From: Craspedostauros australis
Taxonomy: Eukaryota
DNA: 43,767 nucleotides
Direction: 5' to 3'
NCBI GenBank assembly: GCA_030167865.1
Contig: JALAGF010006491.1
Location: forward strand, 1-43,767
Position numbers and translations under genes: made by a program. The stretch's first letter is position 1; each line of letters starts with the position of its first letter. Shown here piece after piece: positions 10,209 to 43,767 of this stretch. The notes under the pieces are model-generated. The model was not told the DNA's origin, did not search any database, and was given only the letters and a program-made list of their open reading frames with translations.

Positions 10209-12551
10209 TTAGCAGCCTTCTGGGATGTTGAAGAACACCTCGGATCCAAAGTTGGTATTGTGCTGGGTTGTCTCGCCGTCGATCGTCACAGTGAAGCCGC
10301 TTCCATTAATGCCGTCTCCTTCGCTGTCGAAGAGATCAAGGTAGGTGCACTTGTCACGTGGAACGCACGCAGTGTACTCTGGGTACGCCGTGTTGGCACG
10401 GATGAAAGAAGCCTTGTTCCAGTACTCGACGTTGGAGTCTTGGGAATCGTACATCAGAAAGGAGGTTTGTTCCGGATAATCATCGGTGCGGAGTTTCAGC
10501 GTCACAGGGATGCAAGTACTTCCGCTGCCGCCGCCGCCACTGCCTCCGTCAGTTCCACCAGTGCCAGTGTTGGATCCGCAGAATTGGATATCGGTGAATT
10601 TTCCAAAGTTGTACTCTGCCTTGGTCTCGATCAGGTTGCCGTCGACCTTGACGGAATACTGGCCACCAGATCCGCTCATACCATCACCCCATTCATCGCC
10701 GATACGGATCGTGTAGCACTGGTCATTGGGAAGGCATCGGTTGATGACCTGTGGAGAGTTGTTGGGGTATGTGTCAGCCAGGACTTTTTCAATGACAACG
10801 CCACCGTTGGACAGATTCCAGCTTGTCTCGTCTCTGTTGTTTTGTGGTTGAATGAAAAGGGGAGTGCACGGATGAAAAGGTGGGAATTTGATTGATTGAT
10901 TGATTGAATCAGTGAGTGAATCAATGAGATTGGGAAGGTTGAGCACAATCGACAGCGACGTCGTTATTGCAAATAATCTGTGTTGTGTACAGGACTAGCG
11001 ACTTGAATTGTATCGGGAAGCGAACAGAGAAGGCGATGATCATGCTGCGAATAGTGCTGACATTGACGTCACAGGAACTTACCCATATTCATCGGTGGTG
11101 AATGTGAACTCCATCAACAGCTCGCCGGAGCTGCATGTGCCACTCTCGCCACCACCAGTGCCGCCGCCAGTGTTGTCATCGCCAGTGCCACCGCCAGTGC
11201 TGTCATCGCCAGTGTTGTCATCGCCAGTGCCACCACCTGCCGTTCCACACAGCTCAGATGGGACGTTCGTCATGGCGCATGCATTTTCCTGGATTTATGG
11301 ATGAGAGGATGACGACGGCGACAAGTACGCAATGATTGTTTCGCATACGTAGCCATACCAAACAAGCAAGCGGGCAAGCAAGCGAAGAGAAGGCAAAGGA
11401 ATGGAATGGTCAAAGTGAGTTGCCGTTCATTGGCCAAGCAAAGTGAAGCGAAAGTGGATGACAGGCACTGTGCGTAATCCCTATTCGACTGGTGCACGTA
11501 CCTTGATCCAATCGTATGTGTTGCTGACACGGGCGTAGATTCCAGGGTGTCGCTGCTGGGCACAGCCGATACCCCAAGACACGACGCCAACCTGAATACG
11601 TTGACCGCCCTCCGTCACGAAAGCGGGACCGCCGGAATCTCCTTGGCACGAGTCCTTGGTACCATGATGGACACCGTTCTTGAGATATCCAGCGCAGAAC
11701 TCCGCTGAATCAGTGACTTGACCGTCGTATCTGTCTTCGTCGTTGCACCAGTCGAAGTCGACTTGCTGGATCTCCAACTCCATCAAGACGTCCGATGCAA
11801 AACCACCGTGCGTTGTGTCTCCGAATCCAATCACCGTCATGGTCTGAGGATTTCCAGAGCTGTCTTTGCCTGGCACTCCATATTTGTCATTGAGCTTCAT
11901 CACCGGGGTGTTGGCTGGAGCTGGTTGGGACAGGCGAAACAACATGATGTCATTGATTTGGGTGGCGGCATAGTCCGGATACACTCTCTTGTCGTCGATC
12001 TCGCGAACTTTGGGACCTGTCTTGAGCTCAAATGCGTCCTGATCGTACGCACCGATGACGGCAGTGAGCCCCACTACTTCAGGTCCGTCGCAATGGGCGG
12101 CACTCAGGACGATGTCGCGCGTGATGAGTGATCCGCCACATCCCACGGCCCAATGGACGAATTCGGGGTACTCCCCCTGCGTTGCCTCGTTTCCACCAAC
12201 GATGTGAGTCTCGTAGTTGTTTGCCGTGATGGAGCCAGTGCGCTTCTTGTGGTTTGGCTTGGCGCCATGATCGTGCCTCTTGACGCCGCCGGTGGTCTTT
12301 GTCTTTGGTTTTGGGTTGTGCTCTGGATGGCCGGAAGGGTTGCTGCTGGTGCGCTTGGTGTGAACCTCCACAGTGTGACGTTGATGGTGAACGTCAGGTG
12401 CGTCAGCACCACGCCTGAGCGCGCGGCCCTGTTTGCCTTCATGCTCAAGCTTGTCTTCGTGGTTTCCGACAGAGGGAACGGACGATGCTTCGGCGACTGA
12501 AGCTGTTGCGACAACTGCGACGAGGATGGAAAGGGCCGAGGAGAGCTTCAT
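10209..12551 (-). CDS. Secreted trypsin-like serine protease (S1A) with two C-terminal tandem domains; 3 exons, 626 aa
   Basis: Exons 12551-11502, 11288-11083 and 10833-10209, joined by GT-AG introns (donors GTACGT, GTAAGT; acceptors CAG, CAG) that keep frame (WIK|ENAC; DEYG|DETSW). Signal peptide MKLSSALSILVAVVATASVAEA, basic propeptide, IVGG activation site, LSAAHC, DIMLFRL and DSCQGDSGGP (full triad, Asp189 trypsin pocket). Confidence 0.93.
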
Positions 12552-19347: not shown

Positions 19348-20421
19348 ATGAAATTCACAACAGCATTCGGTCTTTTGGTTGCATTGAGCAACTCCATCGG
19401 CTCCTCAGCCTTCGTGGTCACCAACAACGGCAGACAGGTCTCCTCCACCCAGCGCAATACCTTGGTCACTGGTCCTGATGGAAAGGCCGCAGCATCCGCC
19501 GAGGAGGATCTCATGCTGACCATGCGGATCATTCTCGATCACGAGCAGCGATCCACCACTGTCTCGAAGGAGCAGTTCATCAGCCAGATGGAGGACCAGA
19601 ACAGCGAGGATTCGGCTAACGAGATCGACATCTCCATTCCATACGACGCCGCCGCCAAGTTGGCCTACGAAGCCAGCGACAAATCCATGGGATACGATGA
19701 TTTCAAGGCAAAGTACGAGGCCGACGCTGTCGAATTGGTGATTTCCAAGCAACCGGTCGACATCTCCATTCCGTACGATGCCGCCGCTAAACTTGCATAC
19801 GCCGCATCCGACAAGTCCATGGCATACCCAGCATTCAAGAAGCAGTACGAAGCCGATGCTGTCGCTCTCGTGGTCTCCAAGCAACCGATTGATATTTCCA
19901 TTCCATATGATGCCGCCGCCAAGCTCGCCTACGCCGCATCCGACAAGTCCATGGCATACCCAGCATTCAAGAAGCAATTCGAGGCTGATGCCGTTGAGTT
20001 GGTGATTTCCAAGCAGCCGGTCGACATCTCCATTCCATACGATGCCGCCGCCAAGCTCGCCTACGCCGCATCCGACAAGTCCATGGCGTACCCAGCCTTC
20101 AAGAAGCAGTACGAAGCTGATGCCGTTGAGTTGGTGGTTTCCAAACAACCGGTCGACATCTCCATTCCATACGACGCCGCCGCCAAGCTCGCCTACGCCG
20201 CATCTGATAAGTCCATGGCGTACCCAGCATTCAAGAAGCAGTATGAAGCCGATGCTGTCGCCCTCGTGGTCTCCAAGCAGCCAGTTGATATCTCCATTCC
20301 ATACGACGCCGCCGCCAAGCTCGCCTACGCCGCATCTGATAAGTCCATGGCGTACCCAGCCTTCAAAAAGCAGTACGAGGCCGATGCGGTCGCTTCGGTG
20401 ATCGCCAAGAAGGGCGAATAA
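19348..20421 (+). CDS. Plastid-targeted protein with six tandem 44-aa repeats (357 aa)
   Basis: Signal peptide plus SSA|FVV (ASAFAP-type) bipartite presequence, a short helical motif (AASAEEDLMLTMRIILDH), then 6 x DISIPYDAAAKLAYAASDKSMAYPAFKKQYEADAVELVISKQPV. Strong C-ending codon bias. Confidence 0.9.
   Translation: MKFTTAFGLLVALSNSIGSSAFVVTNNGRQVSSTQRNTLVTGPDGKAAASAEEDLMLTMRIILDHEQRSTTVSKEQFISQMEDQNSEDSANEIDISIPYDAAAKLAYEASDKSMGYDDFKAKYEADAVELVISKQPVDISIPYDAAAKLAYAASDKSMAYPAFKKQYEADAVALVVSKQPIDISIPYDAAAKLAYAASDKSMAYPAFKKQFEADAVELVISKQPVDISIPYDAAAKLAYAASDKSMAYPAFKKQYEADAVELVVSKQPVDISIPYDAAAKLAYAASDKSMAYPAFKKQYEADAVALVVSKQPVDISIPYDAAAKLAYAASDKSMAYPAFKKQYEADAVASVIAKKGE
19627..20418 (+). repeat. 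Coding tandem repeat, 6 x 132 bp
   Basis: Units start at 19627, 19759, 19891, 20023, 20155 and 20287. Differences among units 2-6 are mostly synonymous. Confidence 0.95.
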
Positions 20422-21299
20422 ACCTGTTGCAATACCACAAGGAGATGCATGCAGTCGCACAAACCATGGCACACACGTGGTGTCGGCCATCAGACGTGCT
20501 GTGCAGACACGGGAGCAGAGAGAAGAAGATACAGTACGTACTCGTACGTATGATACGATGGAATAAAACTCCCTGATCTTGCATGACGTAATATCTCCTA
20601 AGCAATATCTGGGAGCAGCTACCTCCGACCATCCCTTGCAAGAGTGCAATCTCGTAGAATACTCGTTGAAGATGCTCTTCCAAACGCTGCAATGCACGTA
20701 TGGTGCACATGGGAGGACCTATCTGAAAAAGAGCGCTGCTTCGATTGCGACAAGAGAATGAGACTGTTCTTGAACATGTCGGTCGTGGTGCTGCGGTCCC
20801 GATGATGTCCAGTGCGTCGCTCGTCTTTCAACACAGCCGTACCAGTACCCGCATGATTCTGCTCAACACATGAGAGACATTCAAAGAGCAGAGTCCGTGC
20901 ATCGATGTACATAATGTTAGGTAGGAGCATGGTGCACATTCCTTTCATTTGTCTTCTGAAGCTGCACATCGATCTGTCTTCGATTCTCCAGAAGATATCA
21001 TATCCATGACTAAATCACCAGACCATGTCTGGCCGATGTCCGTCGTTCGACATCCAACCAACCATCCCACAAAACAGAACTCCAATCGACAAAAGCGAGC
21101 AACAACCAACCCGAACAGTCGTGATGTGGGACGTGCGCGGATGTACGGATCTGTCGCGGTTGCAATCATCACCTTCACCTCCTGAGGTGGAATCTTGGAG
21201 TGTTCCACAAATCGGCATCAACACCAAGCGTTCGCGGCCATCATCAGGAATACTCTCTCTGGAGGAAATACTAACCTTCACCGACAGCGGCAGATTAGC

Positions 21300-23286: not shown

Positions 23287-26200
23287 TCAATCGCTGTCAT
23301 CTGGAATGATGTACTCCTCATAATCGCTGTCATCTTCGTATCTGTACATGTCTTCATCCACGTCCATCCTGCTGCTGCTGCGATCTTCATCGCTGTAGTC
23401 TTCGTCGTCGCTGTCTCCGTCGCTGTCTTCATCATTCATGCGAAATCCTTCCAACACGTTGTCAATGAGCTCCCATTGAATCTCTTGCTGGGTCTGTTCA
23501 CACAATTGCAAATGATAGATGATGCCGAACAGATCCTTCAGCGTCAGATCTTGGTCCTGTGTTGTGAAGTACCAATCTTGCACAATCTCGAACATGTCCT
23601 GCATTAGCTCCACCTCTTTTTCGCGCCCGTGGCGGCCATAGTACCCCATACCGTTACGGAGCTTGCGTCCCAAATCCATTCGCCGAGCCTCCTCTTCCGG
23701 GTCGAATGCCATGAACTCCGACATGTCAGGTCCCAACGTGGAGACGAAGGTGTCAGCACCGAAGGTTCCCACGGATTCTTGTTTGGAGTACACGGAATAA
23801 TCATCGCCGTCGTCACCGTTGTGGTTGCGACTGCCATAATCCTCATCAGCATCATCATCATCTTCCTCCTCCGTATCGAAACTCGCGCTCAGCGACGAGT
23901 ACTTGGAGTGCATGGTCTTGTTCAGAGTGTGCATCATTTTGTGGAGATGCTGCGATCTGTACTCCAGGGTCCCTTCGCTCGACATAGGAGTCGCCGTTGT
24001 TTCATCGCTGACGGTGGCATTCTCCAACGTCATTGCCACCATGTCATCGATGGGATCAACAATTCTGCTGTTAACCTCCACGACGTTCGGCATGACGATG
24101 TCGTTGATGAGATCCCAGTTGACGACAGCGGTGTTGACGGATTCCACGAGCTGCAGGTGCTCCCGGATGCACCGAGTGTCCTGTCGGGACAACCCGTAGT
24201 GGTTCTCAAACTTCTTCGCCGATTCGTCGTCTTCGTCTCCCAACAAGGCCGCGGTGACACCCCATCGCACCAAGAGCCGACGTTGTGAATCAGGCAACAT
24301 CGCATTGTGGTTGAACTGTGCCAGATCGTCCAAATTTTGCACAACTTGCATGTGCCGAATGAGATAGGCGATATCGACAGGAGCCTGTGCCATGTCCGTC
24401 GTTGCGGATGTCACGTCGTCCATGCTGATGAGGCTGATGTTTGCGCTGTGAGCAGCGATGCTCGCATCCGTGGCAACCTGAGCATTCACGTGCGTGGAAT
24501 GCCTTTGCAAGCCTTCCAACGTGGCAGCTGCCGCAGCCTTGGTTTCGGTTGCCTTCTCCAGCTTGGGCGTGAGCCGATGTTGCAATCTTGGGACGCTCTG
24601 CGATTTGCAACCGTCATCGTTGATTACTCTGCGGCGATGCGTCGACGTGACGGATGCCTGGTCATCGGCGATGGTGGGTGGCAGCTGAGGGCGTTGCGGC
24701 AATCTGGGTGGTGATTGTGGGAGCCTGACCTTTGGCTTCTTCTGTAAACCAGGGCTGTGTGATCTGCACATCGGCGGGCGTTGCAATCCGATGCTGGCCT
24801 GCCGTGTCGGTCGGTAGGATTGCGAAGGTTGGCGCGGTCGTGGCTGGATTGCGGTTCTGCGATTGGTCCTGTGGAAGTCCTGTGCCAGCGCCTTCAATTT
24901 TCGCGTGGATCCCATCCTGGGAGTTCGTTGGGATGGCGTTGGCGTTTGGTTCGGACTCGTTTTGGGCGCCTTGGCAGGTGTGAGCGTGCTGCCATCGACC
25001 TTGTTGGCTTCGTCGGACATGGCGTTGCTGTGGCTCTCCAGTTCCGAAGATGAAGTCGATGCGCGCCTGGCCTTGGCACTGATCTTCTTCGGCTTCTTTC
25101 GGTTGCTGATCAACTGTCTGGTTTTCAGCGCGCTCCTCAGGCTGTCCTTCGTGTTTCGGCTTGGCGACTCCTGGACCACCGAGTCCGCGGTCGCTTGTGC
25201 CATTGGTGGCGGTGGCGGTGCACTGACTTTGACAGGTGCGACCGCAGTGGTAGGGGCATTGGCGCCACTCGCAGCAGGAGTCTTTGATGATGCTCTGGGC
25301 GTCGGCGGCGAAGCTGGGGGCGGCAGGGACGCACCTGAAGACGGCAGCGAAAATCTTTCTTTCGGCGGCGAACCAGGTGTCCAATGTTTGTGCATGGATG
25401 TGCTGGGTAGCCCCGGCTTCCATTTCCTGCGATGCGACGACACCGAGTGCGCGCTGGGCGAATCGAACGGTGTGGACAGATCGAGAGATGGCTTGCGCAC
25501 GAGCGGTGATGCCGTGGCGGGTGGCGCGGAGGATGGCTGTTCAGATGTGCTCGGTGCCGATTCTTTCTTCTGCGAGGTTGGTTTAGTCTTCTTTTTCTTT
25601 TTGACTTTGCGCACCACCTTCTTGATGACCTTGCGAACGACACGTTTTCCATCTGGTGCCACCGTGGTCGTCGTGATCGTGGTGACGTCGTTGCCGTCCT
25701 TGTCCGTCGTGGTTGTCGAGACAGGTGGTTCGGGAGCCAGTGTCGGCACTTTGGGACGCCTCCCCCTCTTTTCTGTTTTGCTGGATTTCTTGTTCTTTTT
25801 GTGAGAGCTTGTCTTCGACCGCTTGGAGCTCGATTTGGGCTCTGACTTCGTTTGTGCTTCTACCTTTTCATCTTGCTGCCGATGTTCCTGTTGCTGTTTT
25901 GTGCTGGTGTCGTTGTTGCCGTCGTTCTCGTTGCCATCATCGTTGCCACTGTTCTGAGGAGCTGTATCATCTTTCGGACTGTGGCCATCGCTGCGAGGAT
26001 TCTTGCGATTGTCATCATCTACGGCGATGACCAGTGACGTTGCGAGACGCTGTTGCGAATTGTGATCAGGCACATGTTTGCGGGTTCCCACTTTGATCTC
26101 GGGCGATTGCATGGGCGAGAGCGGAGCAGGCATGGTGAAGGAATGCGACATTCCCTTGGGCATGCGTCGTGGGTGGTTGTTCCCAATGATGTGCGGGATG

Positions 26201-27810
26201 GGAGCGTTGGCAGCGCCTTTGCCTTTGCCATCGCTGTTGTTATTGTCGTCGTTGCTTTGGGAATCTTTGCCGACGATTCCCCAATCGTACGACGCAGAGG
26301 ATGCAGATTCGTGACAGTCCCCGGATACAGACGCGGTTCCGTTGCGATATTTGCGGATGATGGAGTCTGCAGCCTTCGGCTTGTTGCTCCTGCTGTTTTT
26401 GCCATTGCTCGGTGTGCCATTGCGGTTGCTGCTGCTACTGCGTCCCGCCTGGTTGGTCTTGTGAGATGGGCTGATGCTGGCATGTGCTTGTTCATCAACT
26501 TCTTTGCGCTTGGCGGCCATGCCAGAGAGCGATCTCGTACCACTTGCGCCGGATTTCCGTATTCTGGTGCGCAACGATGCATGCTCCGAAGATGCTGAGT
26601 TGACGGACGATGTGGAGGCGCTCTTACGGACGTTGCCAACCGCCTTTTCAAGCTTCTTGGTGAGGCTGGAGATGAGATTGCCACCACCACCCTGGTTGTG
26701 CCTGCTTCTGCGTGATCTGGATCCAGTGCTGCGTTCGTCTTCATTGTCGGGTGGGATGTACCTGTACTTCTTCTTGTTGTTGCGTGCCCCCGTGGAACTC
26801 CCCGCGCTGTTGCTGCTGCCGATACTGGCGATGCTGCCGCCCGCCTTCTTGCGATGCTTCTGGCCTGGTGACTTCTGCAACCACGAGGTGAGCTGCGCTG
26901 ATCGGATCGACCGTGTTCCATTGCTGTTGCTGTGGCCATTGCTGTGACCATTGCTGTGACCATTGCTGTGACCATTGCTGTGACCATTGCTGTGACCATT
27001 GCTATTGCCATTGATAGCCCCGCTGGCCTTTGGGTTTTCGTGAGTTGCATGAGCGCCTGCAGTGTTGCCATGAATTGCGTTTGCTTTCTTTCTCGTCTTT
27101 GTGTCCATGCTGCGCATTGCTTCCTTCCCAATGGCATTCCTCTTGATCTTTCCGCCTACAGAACCGGGTTGCTGGCGATGATTGTCAGTGCCAGTGTCAG
27201 TTTGAGCGCCAGTGCGATCCTGACTGTCGACCGTGCTGCTCTCATGAGTGCTCGTGCTGCTGCTGCCACCACCATCCGAGGCGGTATCCGGCTCCAGAAC
27301 GTACTCGTCGGAGTCCTGGTATCGAAGCCGCTGCCGTTCCTGCTGCTTCTGCTGGTGCGACGTCAATGCATGGTCACGATCCCCGGGATGATTGCCGTCT
27401 CCGATGGATGCCGGCTGATCCGCGTAGGAACCGAGCTTGGCGGCTGGCTTGTTGGCAGTGGGGGCACTGGTGCGGAAATGGAACTTTCGCAGCAGCGACG
27501 GGCGCGGCGATGTGGATTGCGTGGATGGCGATGCATCGTACTCGTAACGAGAGGTGCCGTTGGCCGTCCTGCCGCTCATTCCACCGTCTGCGATCTTCTT
27601 TGCGGAGGAAGGCAGCGATGCGGGGCTCTCCGCGTTGCCAAACGTGCTCCTCACTCTGAAGTTGCGGTTGCGGCCGTGATTCTGCTTGTGACTTTGTGTG
27701 TGCTTCTGGCTGTGGCTTAGCTCGTGGCTTAGGTTGTGGCTGCGGCTCTGATTCCTGGAGATCGGATCTGCGGTTGAACCTAATGGCGAGAACGTGGCGG
27801 CGTAGATCAT
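23287..27810 (-). CDS. Large, mostly disordered S/K/P-rich protein (1507 aa) with duplicated C-terminal helical motif and acidic tail
   Basis: 4.5-kb uninterrupted ORF with (NGHS)6, K-rich NLS-like runs (VVRKVKKKKK), P-rich segments and two copies of LxxxDxxxIxxHLQLxE...W[DE]LI near the C-terminus. No family recognised. Confidence 0.8.
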   Translation of the reverse strand: MIYAATFSPLGSTADPISRNQSRSHNLSHELSHSQKHTQSHKQNHGRNRNFRVRSTFGNAESPASLPSSAKKIADGGMSGRTANGTSRYEYDASPSTQSTSPRPSLLRKFHFRTSAPTANKPAAKLGSYADQPASIGDGNHPGDRDHALTSHQQKQQERQRLRYQDSDEYVLEPDTASDGGGSSSTSTHESSTVDSQDRTGAQTDTGTDNHRQQPGSVGGKIKRNAIGKEAMRSMDTKTRKKANAIHGNTAGAHATHENPKASGAINGNSNGHSNGHSNGHSNGHSNGHSNGHSNSNGTRSIRSAQLTSWLQKSPGQKHRKKAGGSIASIGSSNSAGSSTGARNNKKKYRYIPPDNEDERSTGSRSRRSRHNQGGGGNLISSLTKKLEKAVGNVRKSASTSSVNSASSEHASLRTRIRKSGASGTRSLSGMAAKRKEVDEQAHASISPSHKTNQAGRSSSSNRNGTPSNGKNSRSNKPKAADSIIRKYRNGTASVSGDCHESASSASYDWGIVGKDSQSNDDNNNSDGKGKGAANAPIPHIIGNNHPRRMPKGMSHSFTMPAPLSPMQSPEIKVGTRKHVPDHNSQQRLATSLVIAVDDDNRKNPRSDGHSPKDDTAPQNSGNDDGNENDGNNDTSTKQQQEHRQQDEKVEAQTKSEPKSSSKRSKTSSHKKNKKSSKTEKRGRRPKVPTLAPEPPVSTTTTDKDGNDVTTITTTTVAPDGKRVVRKVIKKVVRKVKKKKKTKPTSQKKESAPSTSEQPSSAPPATASPLVRKPSLDLSTPFDSPSAHSVSSHRRKWKPGLPSTSMHKHWTPGSPPKERFSLPSSGASLPPPASPPTPRASSKTPAASGANAPTTAVAPVKVSAPPPPPMAQATADSVVQESPSRNTKDSLRSALKTRQLISNRKKPKKISAKARRASTSSSELESHSNAMSDEANKVDGSTLTPAKAPKTSPNQTPTPSQRTPRMGSTRKLKALAQDFHRTNRRTAIQPRPRQPSQSYRPTRQASIGLQRPPMCRSHSPGLQKKPKVRLPQSPPRLPQRPQLPPTIADDQASVTSTHRRRVINDDGCKSQSVPRLQHRLTPKLEKATETKAAAAATLEGLQRHSTHVNAQVATDASIAAHSANISLISMDDVTSATTDMAQAPVDIAYLIRHMQVVQNLDDLAQFNHNAMLPDSQRRLLVRWGVTAALLGDEDDESAKKFENHYGLSRQDTRCIREHLQLVESVNTAVVNWDLINDIVMPNVVEVNSRIVDPIDDMVAMTLENATVSDETTATPMSSEGTLEYRSQHLHKMMHTLNKTMHSKYSSLSASFDTEEEDDDDADEDYGSRNHNGDDGDDYSVYSKQESVGTFGADTFVSTLGPDMSEFMAFDPEEEARRMDLGRKLRNGMGYYGRHGREKEVELMQDMFEIVQDWYFTTQDQDLTLKDLFGIIYHLQLCEQTQQEIQWELIDNVLEGFRMNDEDSDGDSDDEDYSDEDRSSSRMDVDEDMYRYEDDSDYEEYIIPDDSD
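26929..27003 (-). repeat. 12-bp coding tandem repeat, ~6 copies (NGHS)
   Basis: CCATTGCTGTGA units on the + strand, seen directly. Confidence 0.9.
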
Positions 27811-33041: not shown

Positions 33042-36000
33042 CTACCACCAACATTGCGGCAGAATCGAAGGAATCAATCCCACCAATACAACGATCCAGA
33101 TCGCGCTAACATTGCGGATGCGAACAGCGCTCCCACTTCCGTCCATCGTCGGCATATTCGTTTGGCTCGGAGTACCCGGAGTACCAGGAGGATCTGTGGC
33201 TGTCGGAGTCGTTGGCGTATCGGCTACCGGCATGGAAGTTGGCGCCACTGGGGATGCGACCGGGTCATCCGCGCTCAAGTCTACTGGTGGTGGAATGTCG
33301 AAGCCCAAAATCGAAATCACTGTGGCGCTTTCGATGTGGCCGATACTGTCCTCGCCACAATTCTTCAGCGCCGCGGTGTAGGCGGATTCGTCATCGCTGG
33401 AATCGAAGGCATCGTAGACGATGGCATGGAGGTTCACGCCATCCAGGGTGCGATTCGCCATCCCCGGCACGTACTCCAGATGCACATCGTAGTCGATTGT
33501 GCCAAGGTTGACACCAACTCGAGATGATTGCAACGCCGACAACTGCACCGTCCGAAGCATTACCTGAATGCTCTCAAGAATGATCTCGGGCACATTGACC
33601 GCAACGAACTTGGCGATGTGACCGGCCGTTGCCGATTCCAACGCGGATATCGAAGACTGATCGAGAATTTGGAATGGGTACAAAGCCATTTGCACAGACA
33701 CCAATGCCTGCTCAAGCACGGGTAACACCGGCGCTTTCGTCGGAGAATGCGAGGGTGTGCTCGTGGACGGCAACGTAGACGGTAATTCAGACGGTGTTCC
33801 AGTCGGGCGTGTTGATGGGAGCAATGTTGGTGTGGTTGTTGGTACGGCCGTCGGGCGACTCGTCGGCACAGCAGTTGGTCCGCTACTTGGTAAAGTGCTT
33901 GGTACGCTGCTTGGGACAGTGGTTGGTCCCTCCGAAGGGAGCGTTGATGGCTCCATACTTGGCTGATAGGTGGTATCGTTAGTTGGGCTGGAGCTTGGAA
34001 CCATGCTTGGAATGATGCTGGGAAGAACGCTTGGAAGAGTGCTTGGGATAGTACTTGGAAGAGCGCTTGGAATGATGCTTGGAATGATGCTTGGAATGAT
34101 GCTTGGGATAGTACTTGCAATAGTACTTGGAATAGTGCTTGGGTTGGTGGAAGTTCCGTTGGTCATGTTGGCATCAATGTTGATTGGTGGAGCATCGACT
34201 GTCCCGTTCAAGCCGTCTGTTGTGTTGGTGCTCGTTTCATTTCCGAACTCTGTGGTGGGGTTGAGAGATGGGCCGATGCTCGGCTGTGCGGTTGTCGCAT
34301 CCAACAACGCGCTGGGTTGGTTGGTGGCCGTACCAACCGTCACATTGCTGGTGGGTGCGTGACTTGGGCTGCTGGTCGTCTCGTTCGCTGAAATGGTTGT
34401 TGTGTTGATACTCGGGGCATCTGTTGGGTGGAGCGTCACATTCAACGTCCCCTTATGGGTTGGTCCATTCGTCGGACCATTTGTGGGACCATCTGATGGA
34501 TGACCTGTAGGATTGGTCGTTGGATCATTCGTTGGACCCTTCGTTGGACCATTCGTTGGATCATTCGTTGGGACTGCTGGCACGCCAGTATCGGGAATGT
34601 CTGTCGGTTGTCGAGATGGTACATTTGTGGAAACATGGGCGATACTCGGAGCATCTGTCTGCGTTGTATTCCGGGCGATGACGCTGGTTTCGGTGGGCGC
34701 CTCTGTCACGTTGCCAATGTTGGACGAGTTGCTGTCCAGCAATCTCGTTGTGTTCTGCCCGTCATTCATTCCCCTCGTGGGTGAATTCGTTGCCGTTGCG
34801 TTCGGATACGATGTCGGCAACTCTGTTGCCTCTATGGTATTCGCGGAAGTCGGTGGGAGCGTGTCTTTTGGGCTCGATGTTGGCTGGTCCGTTTGAAGAG
34901 TGTCGTTGCTGCTACTTGCTGTTGGAGCAGAGGTGGTGGTATTGGCAGCGGGTCTTGCTGTTGGGCTTGTTGTTGGTGACAGTGTGCTAACCGGCGCAGC
35001 TGTCGGAGCGACGGATTCGGCTGTCGGGCCGATTGAAGGCACGCCTGTGGGAAGCGCTGTTGTTGGCGCGGCAGTCGCAACTGCTGGTGTACTCGATGGA
35101 GATTGCGAAAGGCTCGACGACTGTGCGTTGCTGGCATCTGCTGGTTGATAGCATCCAGCAGTGATCATTCCATCGCCGAGACCTGCTGGGCAGAACACGC
35201 TGCATGGTTCACCGGCCTTGCAGCAAGAGCTGTACTCCACTCCACAAAAATTGAAGCACTCGCAGCTCGGATCTATCGCTTGCGCGATACTTGGTGGAAG
35301 ATGATCCTCCAACAAAGTGGGACACTCGGACTGGGTACCCATGGTGGAGGGACATGGGTTGGCAATGACCTGATCTAATTGGCAAGATGAGCCGTACGTG
35401 TTGTTTCCCAGGTACGTGCAGGAACAGGTAACACGATCTGCTTGATCATCGATGTACGTCACGGAACTTCCAGCCTTCGCACACACCGCATCACCCGATG
35501 CCGTGTTCGTAATCGTGCAGTACGGGCATCGGATATCGCCCTCTGTGCTGCCCGTGTCGCAATAGCACATGAAGTCTGTTTCATCGACAACTGGATCGTA
35601 GTTGGAACACTCCGTCACAGATCGGGAGAAATTGCCCAGCGGTTCCCCCTGCAGAAATGTCACGGTCGACGATGGTTCACCGGCGACACTTTCGAAGCTG
35701 CACGCGGGCTCTTGCCCAGCGCTTGAATCGCCGTCAACACGGCAACCCGCAACATTGACTTGATCCGCTGGGCATGCCCCCGTTGAGCAAGGTTCGTTGA
35801 ACTTGCAGCAGTTGGAGTAGGACGAGCCGCAGAAATTACTTCGCAGTTCGTGGCACGGAAACAGGAAGTAGAATTATCCGGAGATGGGAAGTGATAGCAA
35901 GGGCAATGGCAGTGGCATTGTCAGAGTTGTGCATGCATGGGCGGTGCAGATTGCGAAGGCACAAATTGCGCAGGCACAGATTGAACAAGCATATACTGCT

Positions 36001-38245: not shown

Positions 38246-38497
38246 TGTAGCAAGTTGCTCGTAGCTTGGTTCTTCGTAGCGTTGTGGTTGTATCGGTCCG
38301 TTGCTTTGGTTGCTGCTCCTGGACACTGGACGTGGATACGATCAGTTCTTTCGATGCAGGATGTGCGCAATGGATTGGAGAGTGTCTGGGTGCTCTGCTC
38401 TGCTCTGTTCTGCCAACGCTAGTGATCTCCTGTTTCTTTGTTCGATTGGGCTGCGGAAAGTGCGTGTTTTGCTGTTCAATGCAGATTATGACCATCC

Positions 38498-38797
38498 TGT
38501 TGGTGCAGTAGAGTCTGAGCGGAACAAAACCGCCGGAATGGAATCCGGACGGAGCAAGGACGCGAATGCCAACCACCGATGCAAATCAACGGCTGGGAGC
38601 CATCACCAACATCATGCCGCGCAGCACAAGGCAAACAGCAAGAAGATGGCGAACAAGAACAACAAGCAAACAAAAGCACACAAACTTGTGTAAACTATCT
38701 GATTACACCACCCACAACAATCTCACTTCTCTGCTTCTAGTCTATCTCTTCGGTTCATTGCCGGGTTGGGACTGTGGCAAGAGTTGTTGTTTCAACA
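38498..38797 (+). repeat. 5' LTR (300 bp, TGTTG...CAACA)
   Basis: The start is fixed by identity to 43753-43767. The end is inferred from the terminal inverted TGTTG/CAACA, 33 bp before the gag ATG. Confidence 0.85.
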
Positions 38798-38812
38798 TAG
38801 TTTACACAAGTT
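38798..38812 (+). promoter_or_regulatory. Primer-binding-site position (TAGTTTACACAAGTT), complementary to LTR 38683-38697
   Basis: Immediately follows the LTR terminal CA and does not begin with TGG. It is the exact reverse complement of AACTTGTGTAAACTA inside the LTR. Confidence 0.75.
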
Positions 38813-38830
38813 GCCCGCTCTATCCCTGCG

Positions 38831-41800
38831 ATGAGCAAAGAAACCAAGCCCAACCCGACAAAGCCCAAGGGCGGCGTTGGGAAGGCAAACAACCAACACA
38901 GACGTTATCCGACGCCCCGCAAGTCCACGTTCGCTGGCGCGTGCGACGCACTCGATGGGCGCATTTTTGACTGTTCAGCATCCCGCACAAAGCAGGTGCT
39001 CCAGTACACAAAGACTCTTGACGCCATTGTGATCTACGCTGGAACAACGTACAGCCCATACGTGCGAAAGGCCCTCGACAACATGGAGCCGACGACCTTC
39101 GATCCACCAGCTCGATACGCGAACGACGCGGACGACTACACCAAGGACCTCTGGAGGGCTCAATACAGGATGTATAGCGCACGAGTGGAGAACTACAGCA
39201 CCAAGATGATGGAGGTCTACGCCCTCATCCTCGGACAGTGCACCGACCTCATGCGCAGCCGCTTGACAGAGTCAACTGGGTTCGCAGCTGCCAAGTCGGC
39301 ACAAGACCCACTCAAGCTCCTTGAAGTCATCAAGAACGTGTCGTTCGATATCAACTCCAGTGAGAACATCGCCGTCACCATCTACAAGGCAATCAAGGCG
39401 TTCTACGCGATCCGCCAGACACCTCATCAGCCACTCCTTGAATACTACGAGACGTTCCTCTCACAGATCGAAGTCAACAAGAGCATTGATGCCAACCTTA
39501 CTGGACATGATGGCCTCAACGACATGGCCGTGGAGCTGTCGGCACACGATGAACTGACCGATGACAATCGGGCCAACATCCACGCGATCCGACGCGAGCG
39601 ATTCCTTGCAGTCGCATTCTTGGAGGGCGCCGACCAGGGACGCTACGGCAAGCTCGTCGAAACCCTTCACAATGACTACCTCCTGGGCAGCAACAACTAT
39701 CCAAGTGGCGTGACCGATGCATACAAAATGCTTGAGAACTTCCAGAACAACCCCAAGTACAACTCTGAACCTGGCGGTCCAAGCAACAAGGGCGCGGCCT
39801 TTGCCACCGTTAACGGCGCCAACAGCAAACCAGCAGGCACCGACGCCAGCACTCTCGTCACCGCAGGTGCGCCACACGGAGCCAACGATGAAGGAGATCA
39901 CAACTACCACAACTACGCGCTCAACCAGTCGCCCAATCCCATCCCGGACACATGGTGGCTGCTCGACAACCAGTCAACGGTCGACATCTTCGCTGATGGT
40001 GGATATCTCTACGACATCCACGAGGTCGATGAATACCTCACTGTTCACTGCAACGCCGGGACAGCAACCACCAACCTGATGGGCACTCTCCCAGGGTACG
40101 GCGCAGTGTGGTATCATCCTGACGGAGTGGCCAACATACTCTCGCTCAGCAACATCAAGGATCGTTTCCGCATCACGTTCGACAGCGCTGGTGACAACCG
40201 GTTCATCATCCACAAGCCGGACGGCACCACCAAGGCCTTCGAAGAGTCCAGCTCTGGCCTCTACTACCATGACACGACAGTGTACCGCGGATCTGTCCTG
40301 GTGACTACTGTAGCGGGTAACAAGTCTAAGTTCTCGTCTATCGATTACTCACGTGCTCAGCTTGCCCGTTCTGTCCAGCAGCGCATTGGTCGTCCGTCCA
40401 CTCGCAACTACATCAAGTATGTAAACAACAACATGATCCAGAACTGCCCCGTCACCAGTAAGGACATTCGCAATGCCGAGCTCATCTTCGGTCCTGATCT
40501 CGGATCACTCAAAGGCAAGACGGCTCGCACCACATCACCGCAAGTGCAAGCAGAAATCACTGCTTTGCCCTTCTCCATCCTGCGTCAGTATCAGGAAGTC
40601 ACACTCTCCGTGGACATCATGAAGGTGAACAAGATCCCATTCCTCGTCACCATTGCAAAGCACATCAAGCTTGGCACTGCTCACAAACTAGACTCCGAGT
40701 CTAGCACATCCATCACCAAGAGCATCATGATGATCGTGCGGGTCTACCAACAGCGTGGATTCAAGGTGGTCATGGTCCTCACCAACAACCAGTTCGAGCC
40801 CATCCGCGGCGCACTCGCAGCAGCAGGGACAGCGCTCAACGTCACAGCTCGTGACGAGCACGTCCCAGCAGTTGAGAGATACATTCGGACTATCAAAGAA
40901 CGCACCCGCAGCATGTACAACGCGCTGCCATTCAAGCAGTACCCGCCAGGCCTCCTCATTGAGATGGTATACACCGCTGTGTACTGGCTGAACATGTTCC
41001 CGCATCACGACGGGATCTCCAAGCGAATGAGTCCGGCTGAGATTGTGGTTGGACGCAAGCTTGACTTCCACAAGCACTGCAAGGCGGAATTTGGAACGTA
41101 CGTGCAGACGCACGAACAGCATGACAACAGCATGCATCCCAGAACCATCGCAGCACTTGCACTGCGACCATCTGGAAACGACCAGGGAAGCTACCACTTC
41201 TACAGCCTTCTCACCGGAAGGATCCTGCACCGTAACAACTGGACGGAGTTGCCGATGCCAGATGCTGTGATTAAACACGTTCACGATCTTGCCAAGCAGA
41301 AGAAAGGCCAGAATGACATCGTGTTCACAGATTCACACGACAACATCGTGATGTTGCCGACCATCGGTGCAACCAAGGACGATCCCAATGACGCAGATTA
41401 CGATCCAGATGACGAATCTGAGGCCAGCGAAGAGTCGCTTGATGCTGACATCGAGTCAGATGAGGATTCCAATGACGATGACTCGGACGGCGATGATGCC
41501 GATGATGATGATCCAAACGATGCGGACTACGATCCCGCTGATGAGTCGGAGGCCAGCGACGATCCGCTGGAGCTCTATGTCGGCGCAGAGGGCGGCAACG
41601 ATGATGATGATGAAGAGGAGGAGGAGGAGGAGGATGAGGAGGCGGATGACAGTGGCAGCGATGATGACAGCACCTTTGTCCCGAGTGACGCGGACGAGGA
41701 CGATCACGACGATGATCACGATCCTGATGCTGCTGGACTTGAGCAAGAGGAAGCCGGCGCACTCTTGCCCGCCAAAGAGACAATGGACCAGCCAGCCATT

Positions 41801-43767
41801 GATCCGCTGATCGCACCCATCCATGACGTCGTGCACGAGTTCGTCAACGAAATGCAAGCTCGGCCAGGTGGTCCCAATGATCCAGGAGTGGACGGCGCTG
41901 CCGATGAACAGGAACCGGAGCAGGAAGGACGCCGCACTCGTGGAGGACCGCGACCTGACTATGCCAGGCTGCACAACGTGGGCACCACCGACACAGGAGC
42001 CCATGCAACGATGGTGCAGGTGTCAACCAATGCGGAGGACAAAGTCTGCGATGAGAAGGTGGGATACACTCTTCTCACCGAGCAGATGAATTGGAAGAGA
42101 GGCCTCAAGCTGTTCAACGAACGCGGAGAGGATGCAATCAGCAAGGAGCTGAAGCAAGTGCATGACATGGAAGGATTTGAGCCAAAGCATTGGCATCAGC
42201 TCTCCAAGGACGAGCGTCGCAAGTCGCTGCGATACCTCATGTATCTGAAGGAGAAGCGCACCGGTCTCATCAAGGGACGGGGGTGTGCGGACGGCCGACC
42301 ACAGCGGCTGTACATGACCAAGGAGGAAACCAGCTCCCCCACCGTCTCCCTGCTCGGACTGATGCTCACATGCATTGTCGATGCACACGAAGGGAGAGAC
42401 GTTGCCACCGCCGACGTCCCCGGAGCATTCCTTCAGACCACTTTTGACAAAGGCGAGATCGTGCATGTCCTCATTGAAGGACGCATGGCTGAGCTACTTG
42501 CCAAGATCGCTCCTGATGTGTACAAGAAATACGTCAACCAGAAGCGAGGACAATCGTCCATCTACGTGCAGCTGACGAAGGCGCTGTACGGAACCCTCAA
42601 GGCCGCACTTCAGTGGTGGAAGGATCTGACGACCACCCTCGTGGAAGATGGATTCACCATCAACCCATACGATTGGTGCGTGGCCAACAAGGACGTCAAC
42701 GGCAGCCAATGTACTGTCGTCTGGCATGTCGACGACCTGAAGATCTCTCACAAGGACAGCTCGGTCGTCGACGATGTGCTCCAGATGCTCAGCGAGGCAT
42801 ATGGCAAGCACAGCCCGCTCGCTGTCACCAGAGGCAAGGTCCATGACTATCTTGGCATGCAACTGGACTTCTCCAATCCCGATCAGGTGCAGATTGGCAT
42901 GAGCGAGTACATCAATGGCATTCTCGAAGGAGTACCGGCAAACATGCATGGCAAAGCCACCACGCCAGCAGCTGAGCATCTGCTCGACATCAACGAGAAC
43001 AACCCAGTCAAGCTGGATCAGGAGACAGCCGATCTGTTCCACCACACCGTGGCCAAGCTGCTGTTTCTGTGCAAGCGTGCACGACCAGACCTGCAGACCG
43101 CAGTCGCATTCCTGTGCACTCGTGTCAAGGCACCTGACGAGGATGACTACAAGAAGCTCACCCGCGTTATCAAGTATCTCCGTTCCACCAAGGATATGAC
43201 TCTCACTCTTGGAGGGTCCTCGCTCGAGAATGTGCAGTGGTGGGTCGACGGATCCTTTGGCGTGCATGGCGACATGCGCAGCCACACTGGAGCACACATG
43301 TCCACCGGGGCCGGCACCATCTACGGCGTGTCGACCAAGCAGAAGCTGAACACCAAGAGCTCAACGGAAGCCGAGCTCGTTGCCGTGGACGACGTGATGC
43401 CGCAAGTGCTCTGGACTCGATACTTCCTCGAGGAGCAAGGCATCAAGGTGGAGCCAACCACCATCCATCAGGACAATCAAAGCACCATGTTGCTTGAGAA
43501 CAACGGCAGGGGCTCAAGCGGCAAGAAGACGCGTCATATCAGTATGCGCTATTTCTTCGTCAGCGACAGGATCAACAAAGGACAGATCTGTGTCAAATAC
43601 TGCCCGACCGACGACATGATCGGCGATTTCTTCACCAAGCCAGTGCAGGGATCCAAGTTCCGCAAGTTCCGTGATCTCATCCTCAACCGCACAGAAGCCA
43701 ATCCAACCAAGGCCAAGACCTACAAGCAGGCCCTCATTGGATCGAAGGAGTGTGTTGGTGCAGTAGA
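38831..43767 (+). CDS. Copia gag-pol polyprotein, single frame, >=1645 aa, no stop within window (absent from ORF track)
   Basis: Translated by hand from ATG 38831 (MSKETKPNP...). Gag: LILGQCT, DPLKLL, FLEGADQGRYGKL, NNYP. Protease: WLLDNQSTVDIF (D 39965). Integrase: GPDLGSLKGKT, VDIMKV (D 40613), EHVPAVERYIRTIKER (E 40874). RT: KGRGCADGRPQ, SSPTV, DVPGAFLQ, KALYG, WHVDDL (42722). RNase H: WVDGSF, SSTEAELVA, QDNQST, DMIGDFFTKP. Confidence 0.95.
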   Translation, partial: MSKETKPNPTKPKGGVGKANNQHRRYPTPRKSTFAGACDALDGRIFDCSASRTKQVLQYTKTLDAIVIYAGTTYSPYVRKALDNMEPTTFDPPARYANDADDYTKDLWRAQYRMYSARVENYSTKMMEVYALILGQCTDLMRSRLTESTGFAAAKSAQDPLKLLEVIKNVSFDINSSENIAVTIYKAIKAFYAIRQTPHQPLLEYYETFLSQIEVNKSIDANLTGHDGLNDMAVELSAHDELTDDNRANIHAIRRERFLAVAFLEGADQGRYGKLVETLHNDYLLGSNNYPSGVTDAYKMLENFQNNPKYNSEPGGPSNKGAAFATVNGANSKPAGTDASTLVTAGAPHGANDEGDHNYHNYALNQSPNPIPDTWWLLDNQSTVDIFADGGYLYDIHEVDEYLTVHCNAGTATTNLMGTLPGYGAVWYHPDGVANILSLSNIKDRFRITFDSAGDNRFIIHKPDGTTKAFEESSSGLYYHDTTVYRGSVLVTTVAGNKSKFSSIDYSRAQLARSVQQRIGRPSTRNYIKYVNNNMIQNCPVTSKDIRNAELIFGPDLGSLKGKTARTTSPQVQAEITALPFSILRQYQEVTLSVDIMKVNKIPFLVTIAKHIKLGTAHKLDSESSTSITKSIMMIVRVYQQRGFKVVMVLTNNQFEPIRGALAAAGTALNVTARDEHVPAVERYIRTIKERTRSMYNALPFKQYPPGLLIEMVYTAVYWLNMFPHHDGISKRMSPAEIVVGRKLDFHKHCKAEFGTYVQTHEQHDNSMHPRTIAALALRPSGNDQGSYHFYSLLTGRILHRNNWTELPMPDAVIKHVHDLAKQKKGQNDIVFTDSHDNIVMLPTIGATKDDPNDADYDPDDESEASEESLDADIESDEDSNDDDSDGDDADDDDPNDADYDPADESEASDDPLELYVGAEGGNDDDDEEEEEEEDEEADDSGSDDDSTFVPSDADEDDHDDDHDPDAAGLEQEEAGALLPAKETMDQPAIDPLIAPIHDVVHEFVNEMQARPGGPNDPGVDGAADEQEPEQEGRRTRGGPRPDYARLHNVGTTDTGAHATMVQVSTNAEDKVCDEKVGYTLLTEQMNWKRGLKLFNERGEDAISKELKQVHDMEGFEPKHWHQLSKDERRKSLRYLMYLKEKRTGLIKGRGCADGRPQRLYMTKEETSSPTVSLLGLMLTCIVDAHEGRDVATADVPGAFLQTTFDKGEIVHVLIEGRMAELLAKIAPDVYKKYVNQKRGQSSIYVQLTKALYGTLKAALQWWKDLTTTLVEDGFTINPYDWCVANKDVNGSQCTVVWHVDDLKISHKDSSVVDDVLQMLSEAYGKHSPLAVTRGKVHDYLGMQLDFSNPDQVQIGMSEYINGILEGVPANMHGKATTPAAEHLLDINENNPVKLDQETADLFHHTVAKLLFLCKRARPDLQTAVAFLCTRVKAPDEDDYKKLTRVIKYLRSTKDMTLTLGGSSLENVQWWVDGSFGVHGDMRSHTGAHMSTGAGTIYGVSTKQKLNTKSSTEAELVAVDDVMPQVLWTRYFLEEQGIKVEPTTIHQDNQSTMLLENNGRGSSGKKTRHISMRYFFVSDRINKGQICVKYCPTDDMIGDFFTKPVQGSKFRKFRDLILNRTEANPTKAKTYKQALIGSKECVGAV
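43744..43752 (+). promoter_or_regulatory. Polypurine tract (plus-strand primer)
   Basis: GAAGGAGTG directly abuts the 3' LTR start TGTTG at 43753. Confidence 0.7.
43753..43767 (+). repeat. Start of 3' LTR (truncated by window end)
   Basis: 15/15 identity to 38498-38512. Confidence 0.92.

Follow-up and report, generated by a model that had tools for sequence, protein, structure and literature searches.

Self-priming of reverse transcription has been experimentally shown for the Tf1/sushi group of Ty3/Gypsy retrotransposons, as represented by Tf1 and Tf2 of Schizosaccharomyces pombe. In Tf1, the RNA's first 11 bases pair with the primer-binding site (PBS), and ribonuclease H (RNase H) cuts between bases 11 and 12 (PMC7175516). 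Here we describe a Copia-type long terminal repeat (LTR) retrotransposon of the diatom Craspedostauros australis that, judging from comparative sequence analysis, very probably primes its own reverse transcription in a similar way. The element lies in contig JALAGF010006491.1 (GenBank assembly GCA_030167865.1), of which positions 1 to 43,767 of the forward strand were analysed. This whole 43,767-nt stretch is referred to below as the window.

Within Ty1/Copia, self-priming has been predicted for the plant TAR lineage, which includes Houba and Osr-1 (Neumann 2019, PMC6317226, which cites Capy 2005). Priming by half-tRNAs is described in the same source for the copia, Osser, Bryco and Bianca lineages, where the PBS is without the TGG of the tRNA 3′ end (PMC6317226). 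In place of a PBS, the fungal GalEa Copia elements carry a Conserved Hairpin Site (Donnart et al. 2017, PMC5445492), a local palindrome to which the final base of the LTR belongs. No complementary segment was detected in the LTR by the authors, who therefore ruled out the Tf1 model (PMC5445492). In diatoms, the Copia-like elements named CoDi are described as 5.2-8.1 kb long, with LTRs of 153-844 bp and TG/CA termini (Maumus et al. 2009, PMC2806351). Primer binding, tRNA, priming and a polypurine tract (PPT) all go unmentioned in its main text (PMC2806351).

Results

An LTR-internal segment is perfectly complementary to the PBS

A repeat search of the window identified two segments, 38683-38698 (AACTTGTGTAAACTAT) and 38797-38812 (ATAGTTTACACAAGTT), that are 100% complementary over 16 nt and lie 98 nt apart. 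The first, or 5′ arm, is internal to the 5′ LTR. Its positions 38683-38697 pair with the 15-nt PBS at 38798-38812, while 38698 pairs with the last LTR base, 38797, so that the 3′ arm comprises this base and the PBS. In 1000 dinucleotide-preserving shuffles of 38498-38833 (loop 30-400 nt), the longest perfect inverted repeat ranged from 6 to 12 nt; a length of 12 nt was attained in 3/1000 shuffles and 13 nt in 0/1000. Across the whole 43.8-kb window, one other such repeat reaches 13 nt, at 11484/11744. When 38683-38830 is folded as RNA, the 16 bp form the closing stem of a structure with a minimum free energy (MFE) of -43.9 kcal/mol, compared with a shuffle mean of -27.9 (sd 3.4, z = -4.74), and 0/200 shuffles were as stable. 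A primer that ended at 38697 would be extended by copying 38797..38793 (A, C, A, A, C), and its product would begin with TGTTG.

A preliminary description of this DNA, made by inspection of the letters, had drawn attention to much of this arrangement. The perfect 16-nt reverse complement that it reported was recovered by the repeat search and lies beyond all 1000 shuffles, and its account of the 3′ arm as the final base of the LTR followed by the 15 nt of the PBS position fits an LTR of 38498-38797. The missing TGG can now be extended from the window, where the PBS begins with TAG, to all 33 distinct elements compared below (0/33 start with TGG). That extension after a cut at 38697 would start with TGTTG, the LTR terminus, follows directly from the sequence.

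The pairing recurs in related loci

For comparison with related elements, 39 relatives and the query were aligned (A1), and this alignment was used for a profile scan of metagenome contigs. The scan gave 578 confirmed matches, of which the best 80, corresponding to 77 loci (L001-L077), were kept. A later scan of prokaryote-labelled genome contigs contributed 6 more (L078-L083), for a total of 83. Many of the contigs are circularly permuted or have k-mer end overlaps, and therefore the end of pol, the LTR, the PBS and the start of gag are contiguous in them. In locus after locus, a blind search for perfect inverted repeats returned one of 13-17 nt just upstream of gag, mostly with a loop of 88-126 nt. 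Perfect 13-17-nt pairing of the PBS position with an LTR-internal segment is present in 48/83 related loci, including 46 of the 77 metagenomic ones and 2 of the 6 prokaryote-labelled ones (L081, and L079, which has a new arm sequence).

A gag start is detectable in 44 of the 77 metagenomic loci, and 42 of these are paired. The two that are not are L003, which begins inside gag and has no upstream sequence, and L065, a decayed 2.2-kb deletion copy. Another 4/77 are paired with no detected gag start, and the other 29 have neither. The prokaryote-labelled locus L078 has the LTR end and the PBS, its contig being cut ~98 nt upstream. In four contigs that begin inside the 5′ LTR (L010, L016, L037 and L039), the PBS pairs with the arm in the 3′ LTR.

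The search was also specific. Only 3 other perfect inverted repeats with arms of 13 nt or more (loop 30-400) occur in 372 kb of loci, all of them outside the part of the contig that matches the element. A relaxed search for decayed pairing (up to 2 mismatches in 14) gave no match in the 31 loci without a perfect one. In L065 (1580-1710), an internally deleted copy, comparison by eye indicates that the layout of LTR, arm and PBS is kept and that the PBS has substitutions and an indel relative to the arm, a mismatch that fits decay following a presumed loss of autonomy. Two scans of viral contigs found no relative of the element. No poly(A) or poly(T) was found at the contig ends of the loci, and none of these contigs was identifiable as a transcript.

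The PBS and the LTR segment co-vary

There are 33 distinct arm sequences, the window's included, and that of L079 brings the number to 34. The arms have a mean of 14% GC and are not conserved between lineages, and in the 48 loci they are perfect, with no G:U pair and no mismatch. Closely related elements differ by fully compensated changes: L011 and L019 at 1 position, L024 and L028 at 3, and L005 and L022 at 3. Compared over 14 nt, each PBS matches its own LTR at 13-14/14 positions, and its match to the 32 foreign LTRs averages 8.5/14; 6/1056 cross pairs of a PBS with a foreign LTR reach 13.

The same is seen in a second, MAFFT alignment (A2) of 29 contiguous examples, from which 4 elements with arms in different LTR copies, as well as duplicate arm sequences, were omitted. 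Over the 15-pair stem, 83.3% of cells are paired, as against 53.6% in shuffled alignments and 36-52% with slid partners. The stem contains 132 double-sided changes (51 when shuffled), with 14/15 pairs showing such changes, and has a covariation score of 0.662 (0.190 when shuffled); 0/500 shuffles reach the observed pairing or covariation. Because arm 1 is mis-registered in ~12/29 rows, the A2 counts understate the pairing. Run on 16 rows whose loops are of similar length, RNAalifold recovers the long stem independently and adds a 7-bp hairpin in the unique 5′ region (U5) of the LTR, each pair of which shows compensatory changes. In the window this hairpin is formed by 38748-38754/38760-38765, and it is present in the single-sequence MFE fold as well. 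Co-variation of the PBS with the LTR segment in relatives, which the preliminary description had named as a check, is therefore strongly positive (48/83 loci, 34 arm sequences, 0/500 shuffles), and this comparative evidence lends strong support to the self-priming suggested there.

Element structure and LTR boundaries

The features of the element, with the basis of each, are the following.

38493..38497, plus strand: candidate target-site duplication CATCC, from its position directly 5′ of the 5′ LTR.
38498..38797, plus strand: 5′ LTR, 300 bp, TGTTG...CAACA; start from identity with the 3′ LTR, end from CAACA and 4 relatives.
38498..38682, plus strand: inferred unique 3′ region (U3), the 3′ copy of which doubles as the polyprotein coding tail; from the open frame, with the boundary between U3 and the repeat region (R) from the initiator-like motif.
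38679..38684, plus strand: initiator-like CACA/AA, predicted start at ~38682-38683; homologous to CTCA of the relatives.
38683..38698, plus strand: 5′ arm, the proposed self-primer, AACTTGTGTAAACTAT; from the inverted repeat, the fold and the relatives.
38691..38693, plus strand: TAA in the 5′ arm, the predicted polyprotein stop in the 3′ LTR copy; from frame arithmetic.
38748..38765, plus strand: conserved U5 hairpin, loop TCATT; from RNAalifold and the single-sequence MFE fold.
38798..38812, plus strand: PBS, 15 nt, complementary to the element's own LTR and without TGG; from the sequence.
38831..43767, plus strand: gag-pol polyprotein open reading frame (ORF), uninterrupted, 1645 aa in the window; it exits the window end inside the 3′ LTR.
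42203..42934, plus strand: Copia-type reverse transcriptase (RT) domain, residues 1125-1368; from Pfam RVT_2.
43739..43752, plus strand: PPT region GGATCGAAGGAGTG, directly 5′ of the 3′ LTR; from the sequence.
43753..43767, plus strand: first 15 nt of the 3′ LTR, up to the window end; identical to 38498-38512.

The LTR start was placed at 38498, and the LTR length at 300 bp, because the last 15 nt of the window repeat 38498-38512 (43753-43767, 15/15) and the match collapses just upstream, where the preceding 20 nt agree at 4/20. A longer LTR, considered on account of the open frame upstream (38301-38497), was rejected, as there is no similarity to the region preceding the 3′ LTR. The other boundary can be read from four relatives (L010, L017, L022 and L039), in which CAACA closes the 3′ LTR and unrelated flank comes next; in the 5′ copy, the paired segment stands in the place of this flank. 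Since these 3′ LTRs end exactly at CAACA, the paired segment stands at the true PBS position, and the LTR end at 38797 that had been proposed from the window by itself is borne out by homology. The LTR starts of relatives were placed by the PPT/LTR junction GGAGTG/TGTT(G/A), found 90-393 nt upstream of the 5′ arm in 26/32 distinct relatives (185 nt in the window). This junction (CAGGAGTG/TGTTG, window 43739-43757) is nearly invariant in nucleotides though it lies inside the pol coding tail.

Read in the frame of the ORF that begins at 38831, the LTR contains no stop between 38499 and the TAA at 38691-38693 (coordinates of the 5′ copy). The pol frame is thus predicted to enter the 3′ LTR and to stop at the TAA of the arm, if both LTRs are alike. 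In 18/31 related loci where both can be placed, the pol stop is no more than 24 nt from the 5′ arm. Because the polyprotein frame runs through all of U3 and stops inside the primer arm, U3, with the promoter, would overlap coding sequence. On this reconstruction the element is unusually compact: the end of pol is encoded in U3, and its stop codon falls within the primer segment. Directly 3′ of the primer arm, the relatives have a conserved CTGGTTTA-like motif, which in the window is CTGATTAC (38699-38706); this motif might be cleavage-site context, a polyadenylation element or an R element.

Polyprotein and Copia assignment

This diatom LTR retrotransposon is intact and of the Ty1/Copia type. 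Its polyprotein matches Pfam RVT_2 over residues 1125-1368 (E = 8.2e-14; 52.2 bits, with a cut-off of 31.6), and relatives of the polyprotein carry RVT_2 too. It is 38-65% identical to many metagenomic Copia polyproteins; when 8000 candidates were scored for the RT-RNase H part, 1677 of them qualified as database relatives at E <= 0.001, the top one sharing 65% identity. One polyprotein relative has the prefix CCRYP, which we take to denote Cyclotella cryptica. Pfam searches gave no integrase match, including searches with sub-segments at E up to 1, and the family profile had no PDB match; for a protease, the Pfam search of polyprotein sub-segments yielded nothing credible. The motif DEHVPxxERxIRTxKER at ~residues 675-690, before the RT, is presumably integrase-like.

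The six loci L078-L083 are diatom-type Copia sequences in contigs labelled as bacterial or cyanobacterial metagenome-assembled genomes, and a GC-rich contig of 42 kb that is labelled Rhizobacter carries the partial copy L083 at its end. These Copia loci in prokaryote-labelled bins probably represent eukaryotic contamination or chimeric assembly.

Arm position and predicted transcription start

The 3′ arm always directly follows the conserved LTR end CAACA, and it includes the final A of CAACA where the 5′ arm is followed by T. In 30/33 elements, the pairing begins at the A of a conserved CTCA or one nt after it. An initiator-like motif, TCAH(+1)W, has been proposed for diatoms, with CACA at one mapped start (Kadono et al. 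2015, PMC4686930), and an oomycete initiator is given as TCATTCC, with A at +1 (PMC4368664). The H of the diatom motif lies within 1 nt of the arm's first base in 27/33 elements and exactly there in 19/33. As indirect evidence, the initiator-like CTCA next to the arm agrees with the start near 38683 that the preliminary description had predicted. Among the 33 elements, a TATA-box search of the region 15-60 nt upstream of the arm returned a single weak match, and no conservation was found upstream of CTCA; from its sequence, the promoter looks TATA-less.

Other features of the window

The rest of the window contains ordinary eukaryotic genes, with PPR, WD40 (RBBP4-like), trypsin and SH3 families recognised by Pfam. 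For the WD40 gene, the named best relatives are all from diatoms (Cylindrotheca, Nitzschia, Pseudo-nitzschia, Epithemia and Mayamaea), at 53-61% identity, which places the host among the diatoms. A run of N at ~2018-2068, an assembly gap, appeared as an artefact in the inverted-repeat search. A 132-nt unit occurs five times in tandem at 19625-20452 (71-85% identity), within ORFs that overlap on the two strands. Long 12-nt periodic repeats of the GCTTGG type occupy 33826-34154, within an ORF of 842 aa (33042-35570, minus strand) that has no Pfam match and probably encodes a repetitive low-complexity protein. Another ORF, of 1507 aa (23287-27810, minus strand), matches no Pfam family at E <= 0.001.

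Discussion

Self-priming of the Tf1 type is, in our judgment, the most likely way in which this element starts reverse transcription. The pairing, its position, its conservation and co-variation, and the absence of a tRNA-type PBS are all observed; to these we would add, by inference, a transcription start, an RNase H cut and priming itself. Transcription would start at the initiator-like CA, at ~38682-38683. The first 15-16 nt of the RNA (38683-38697/8) would fold back across R-U5 onto 38798-38812, with the U5 hairpin in between, and the element's RNase H would cut at the 3′ edge of the duplex, after 38697. Extension of the freed 3′-OH into the end of the LTR would then yield TGTTG.... Were each new copy to derive its PBS from the primer, as in Tf1, both arms would be rewritten together in every cycle, and for this reason they would be free to differ between lineages yet remain perfectly paired in intact copies. 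Regeneration of the PBS from a retained primer was reportedly described by Atwood-Moore in 2006.

A broader proposal is that a widespread diatom Copia clade, with members 34-65% identical in polyprotein and present in many environmental assemblies, gave up host tRNA primers. Each of its elements would prime with the first 14-16 nt of its own initiator-started transcript; the PBS would be re-copied from this primer in every cycle, and the two would therefore change together while diverging from one lineage to another. We favour this proposal slightly, and hold it with much less assurance than self-priming of the window element.

Several points weigh against self-priming as set out here. The LTR terminus at 38797 was placed from the TGTTG/CAACA symmetry and from relatives, the end of the window's own 3′ LTR lying outside the window. 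The transcription start at ~38682-38683 is predicted from an initiator-like motif. Anchored on the A of CTCA, T is found at -2 in 28/33 elements and C at -3 in 27/33, and only these two positions are independent, A at 0 and C at -1 being partly fixed by the choice of anchor. The window copy, CACA/AA, is without the T and is one of 5/33 that have no T/YCAHW match. Two contigs, L017 and L054, begin upstream of the arm (by 15 and 26 nt, respectively); if they are transcripts, the start would lie further upstream. Finally, ARAGORN found no tRNA gene in the window or in loci L001-L077, and the comparison with tRNAs covers these sequences only.

The stem could instead be a structural RNA element, an R-U5 panhandle that functions in packaging, dimerisation, translation control or 5′-3′ cyclisation via the arm in the 3′ LTR, with some other RNA as the primer. 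Long-range pairings around the PBS are reported for other retroelements, as in the Ty1 RNA structure (PMC3592414). Moreover, the stem and the U5 hairpin are conserved structures, and structure alone is no proof of priming. Nevertheless, we regard this explanation as improbable. The 3′ arm occupies precisely the place, directly 3′ of the LTR, that any primer must bind. A shared host primer does not fit this site, because the sequence at the PBS position varies between lineages and never starts with TGG (0/33). Arms that contain no G:U pair or mismatch in 48 loci are stricter than a structural helix needs, and are what would be expected if the PBS is re-copied. Since the stem occupies the PBS, a purely structural role would also leave the element without a visible primer site.

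Priming by a host tRNA or an internal tRNA fragment, as in copia, Ty5 and elements of the Osser/Bianca type, would make the match to the element's own LTR secondary. Most Ty1/Copia elements are indeed described as using tRNA-Met or half-tRNAs (PMC6317226). For the element in the window, such a primer is unlikely, and more so than a structural role, because none of the 33 PBS starts with TGG, the PBS is variable between lineages and the arms are AT-rich. A tRNA primer would hold the PBS constant, whereas the cross-complementarity of the PBS has a mean of 8.5/14 while each matches its own LTR; and a GC content of 14% is unlike that of tRNA stems. A chance inverted repeat or assembly artefact without function has a negligible probability: short inverted repeats do occur in any sequence, and the window has one other of 13 nt, but this explanation is already refuted by the shuffles (0/1000 at 13 nt), by co-variation and by recurrence of the layout in 48/83 independent contigs with 34 different sequences, and off-site repeats are nearly absent in 372 kb.

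Self-priming has been proven only for Gypsy elements of the Tf1 type; should a large and sequence-diverse diatom Copia clade share its signature, the strategy would be shown to be either widespread or recurrent. The 34 different primer/PBS pairs amount to a natural experiment. If the proposal for the clade is true, this clade would join Tf1/sushi and plant TAR as a third self-priming lineage, and would represent either an independent origin or an ancestral remnant; hairpin priming as the ancestral state of LTR elements has been a matter of speculation (PMC3601003). There would also be consequences for annotation. An LTRdigest filter described for Cyclotella cryptica is an example of a pipeline that keeps LTR candidates with a tRNA-complementary PBS (PMC7466962). 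Because tRNA-PBS filters would discard self-primed elements, the Copia content of diatom genomes may be under-counted. In mammals, tRNA-derived fragments are reported to target PBS of the tRNA type (PMC7472051), and self-primed elements would presumably escape control by tRNA fragments.

The preliminary description had left the novelty of self-priming in diatom Copia elements to the literature, which gives a divided answer. For diatoms, no published report was found in a full-text literature search that had most subscription journals and Repbase reports outside its reach. For Copia as a whole the idea is not new, because it has been predicted for the plant TAR lineage (PMC6317226). The mechanism itself is thus known; what appears to be unreported is its presence in a large clade of diatom Copia elements.

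Comparison with known systems

Set beside the published description of CoDi, the element in the window is similar in being diatom-hosted, with a single ORF, a length of ~5.5 kb and a 300-bp LTR with TG/CA termini. With GalEa it shares membership of Copia, the lack of a tRNA-type PBS and a conserved structure at the PBS position; it differs in that the partner of this position is an LTR-internal segment ~100 nt upstream. In the half-tRNA lineages, the PBS is conserved within a lineage and matches the interior of a tRNA, whereas here it varies and tracks the element's own LTR. The TAR lineage, with which the element was likewise compared by description only, is also of the Copia superfamily and has a self-complementary PBS predicted from sequence, but its hosts are plants rather than diatoms.

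The closest parallel is with Tf1. As in that element, the PBS directly follows the 5′ LTR and is complementary to the element's own RNA start (predicted here) and not, or here probably not, to a tRNA. The arms in the window element enclose a stem-loop, and those of Tf1 enclose a U5-IR-like stem-loop. There are also differences. Tf1 belongs to the Gypsy superfamily, whereas the element in the window has a Copia-type RT (RVT_2). The Tf1 duplex is 11 nt, while the duplexes described here are 13-17 nt, are known from sequence and have an inferred start. Finally, in contrast to Tf1, the window element and many of its relatives have a U3 that also serves as the coding tail of pol.

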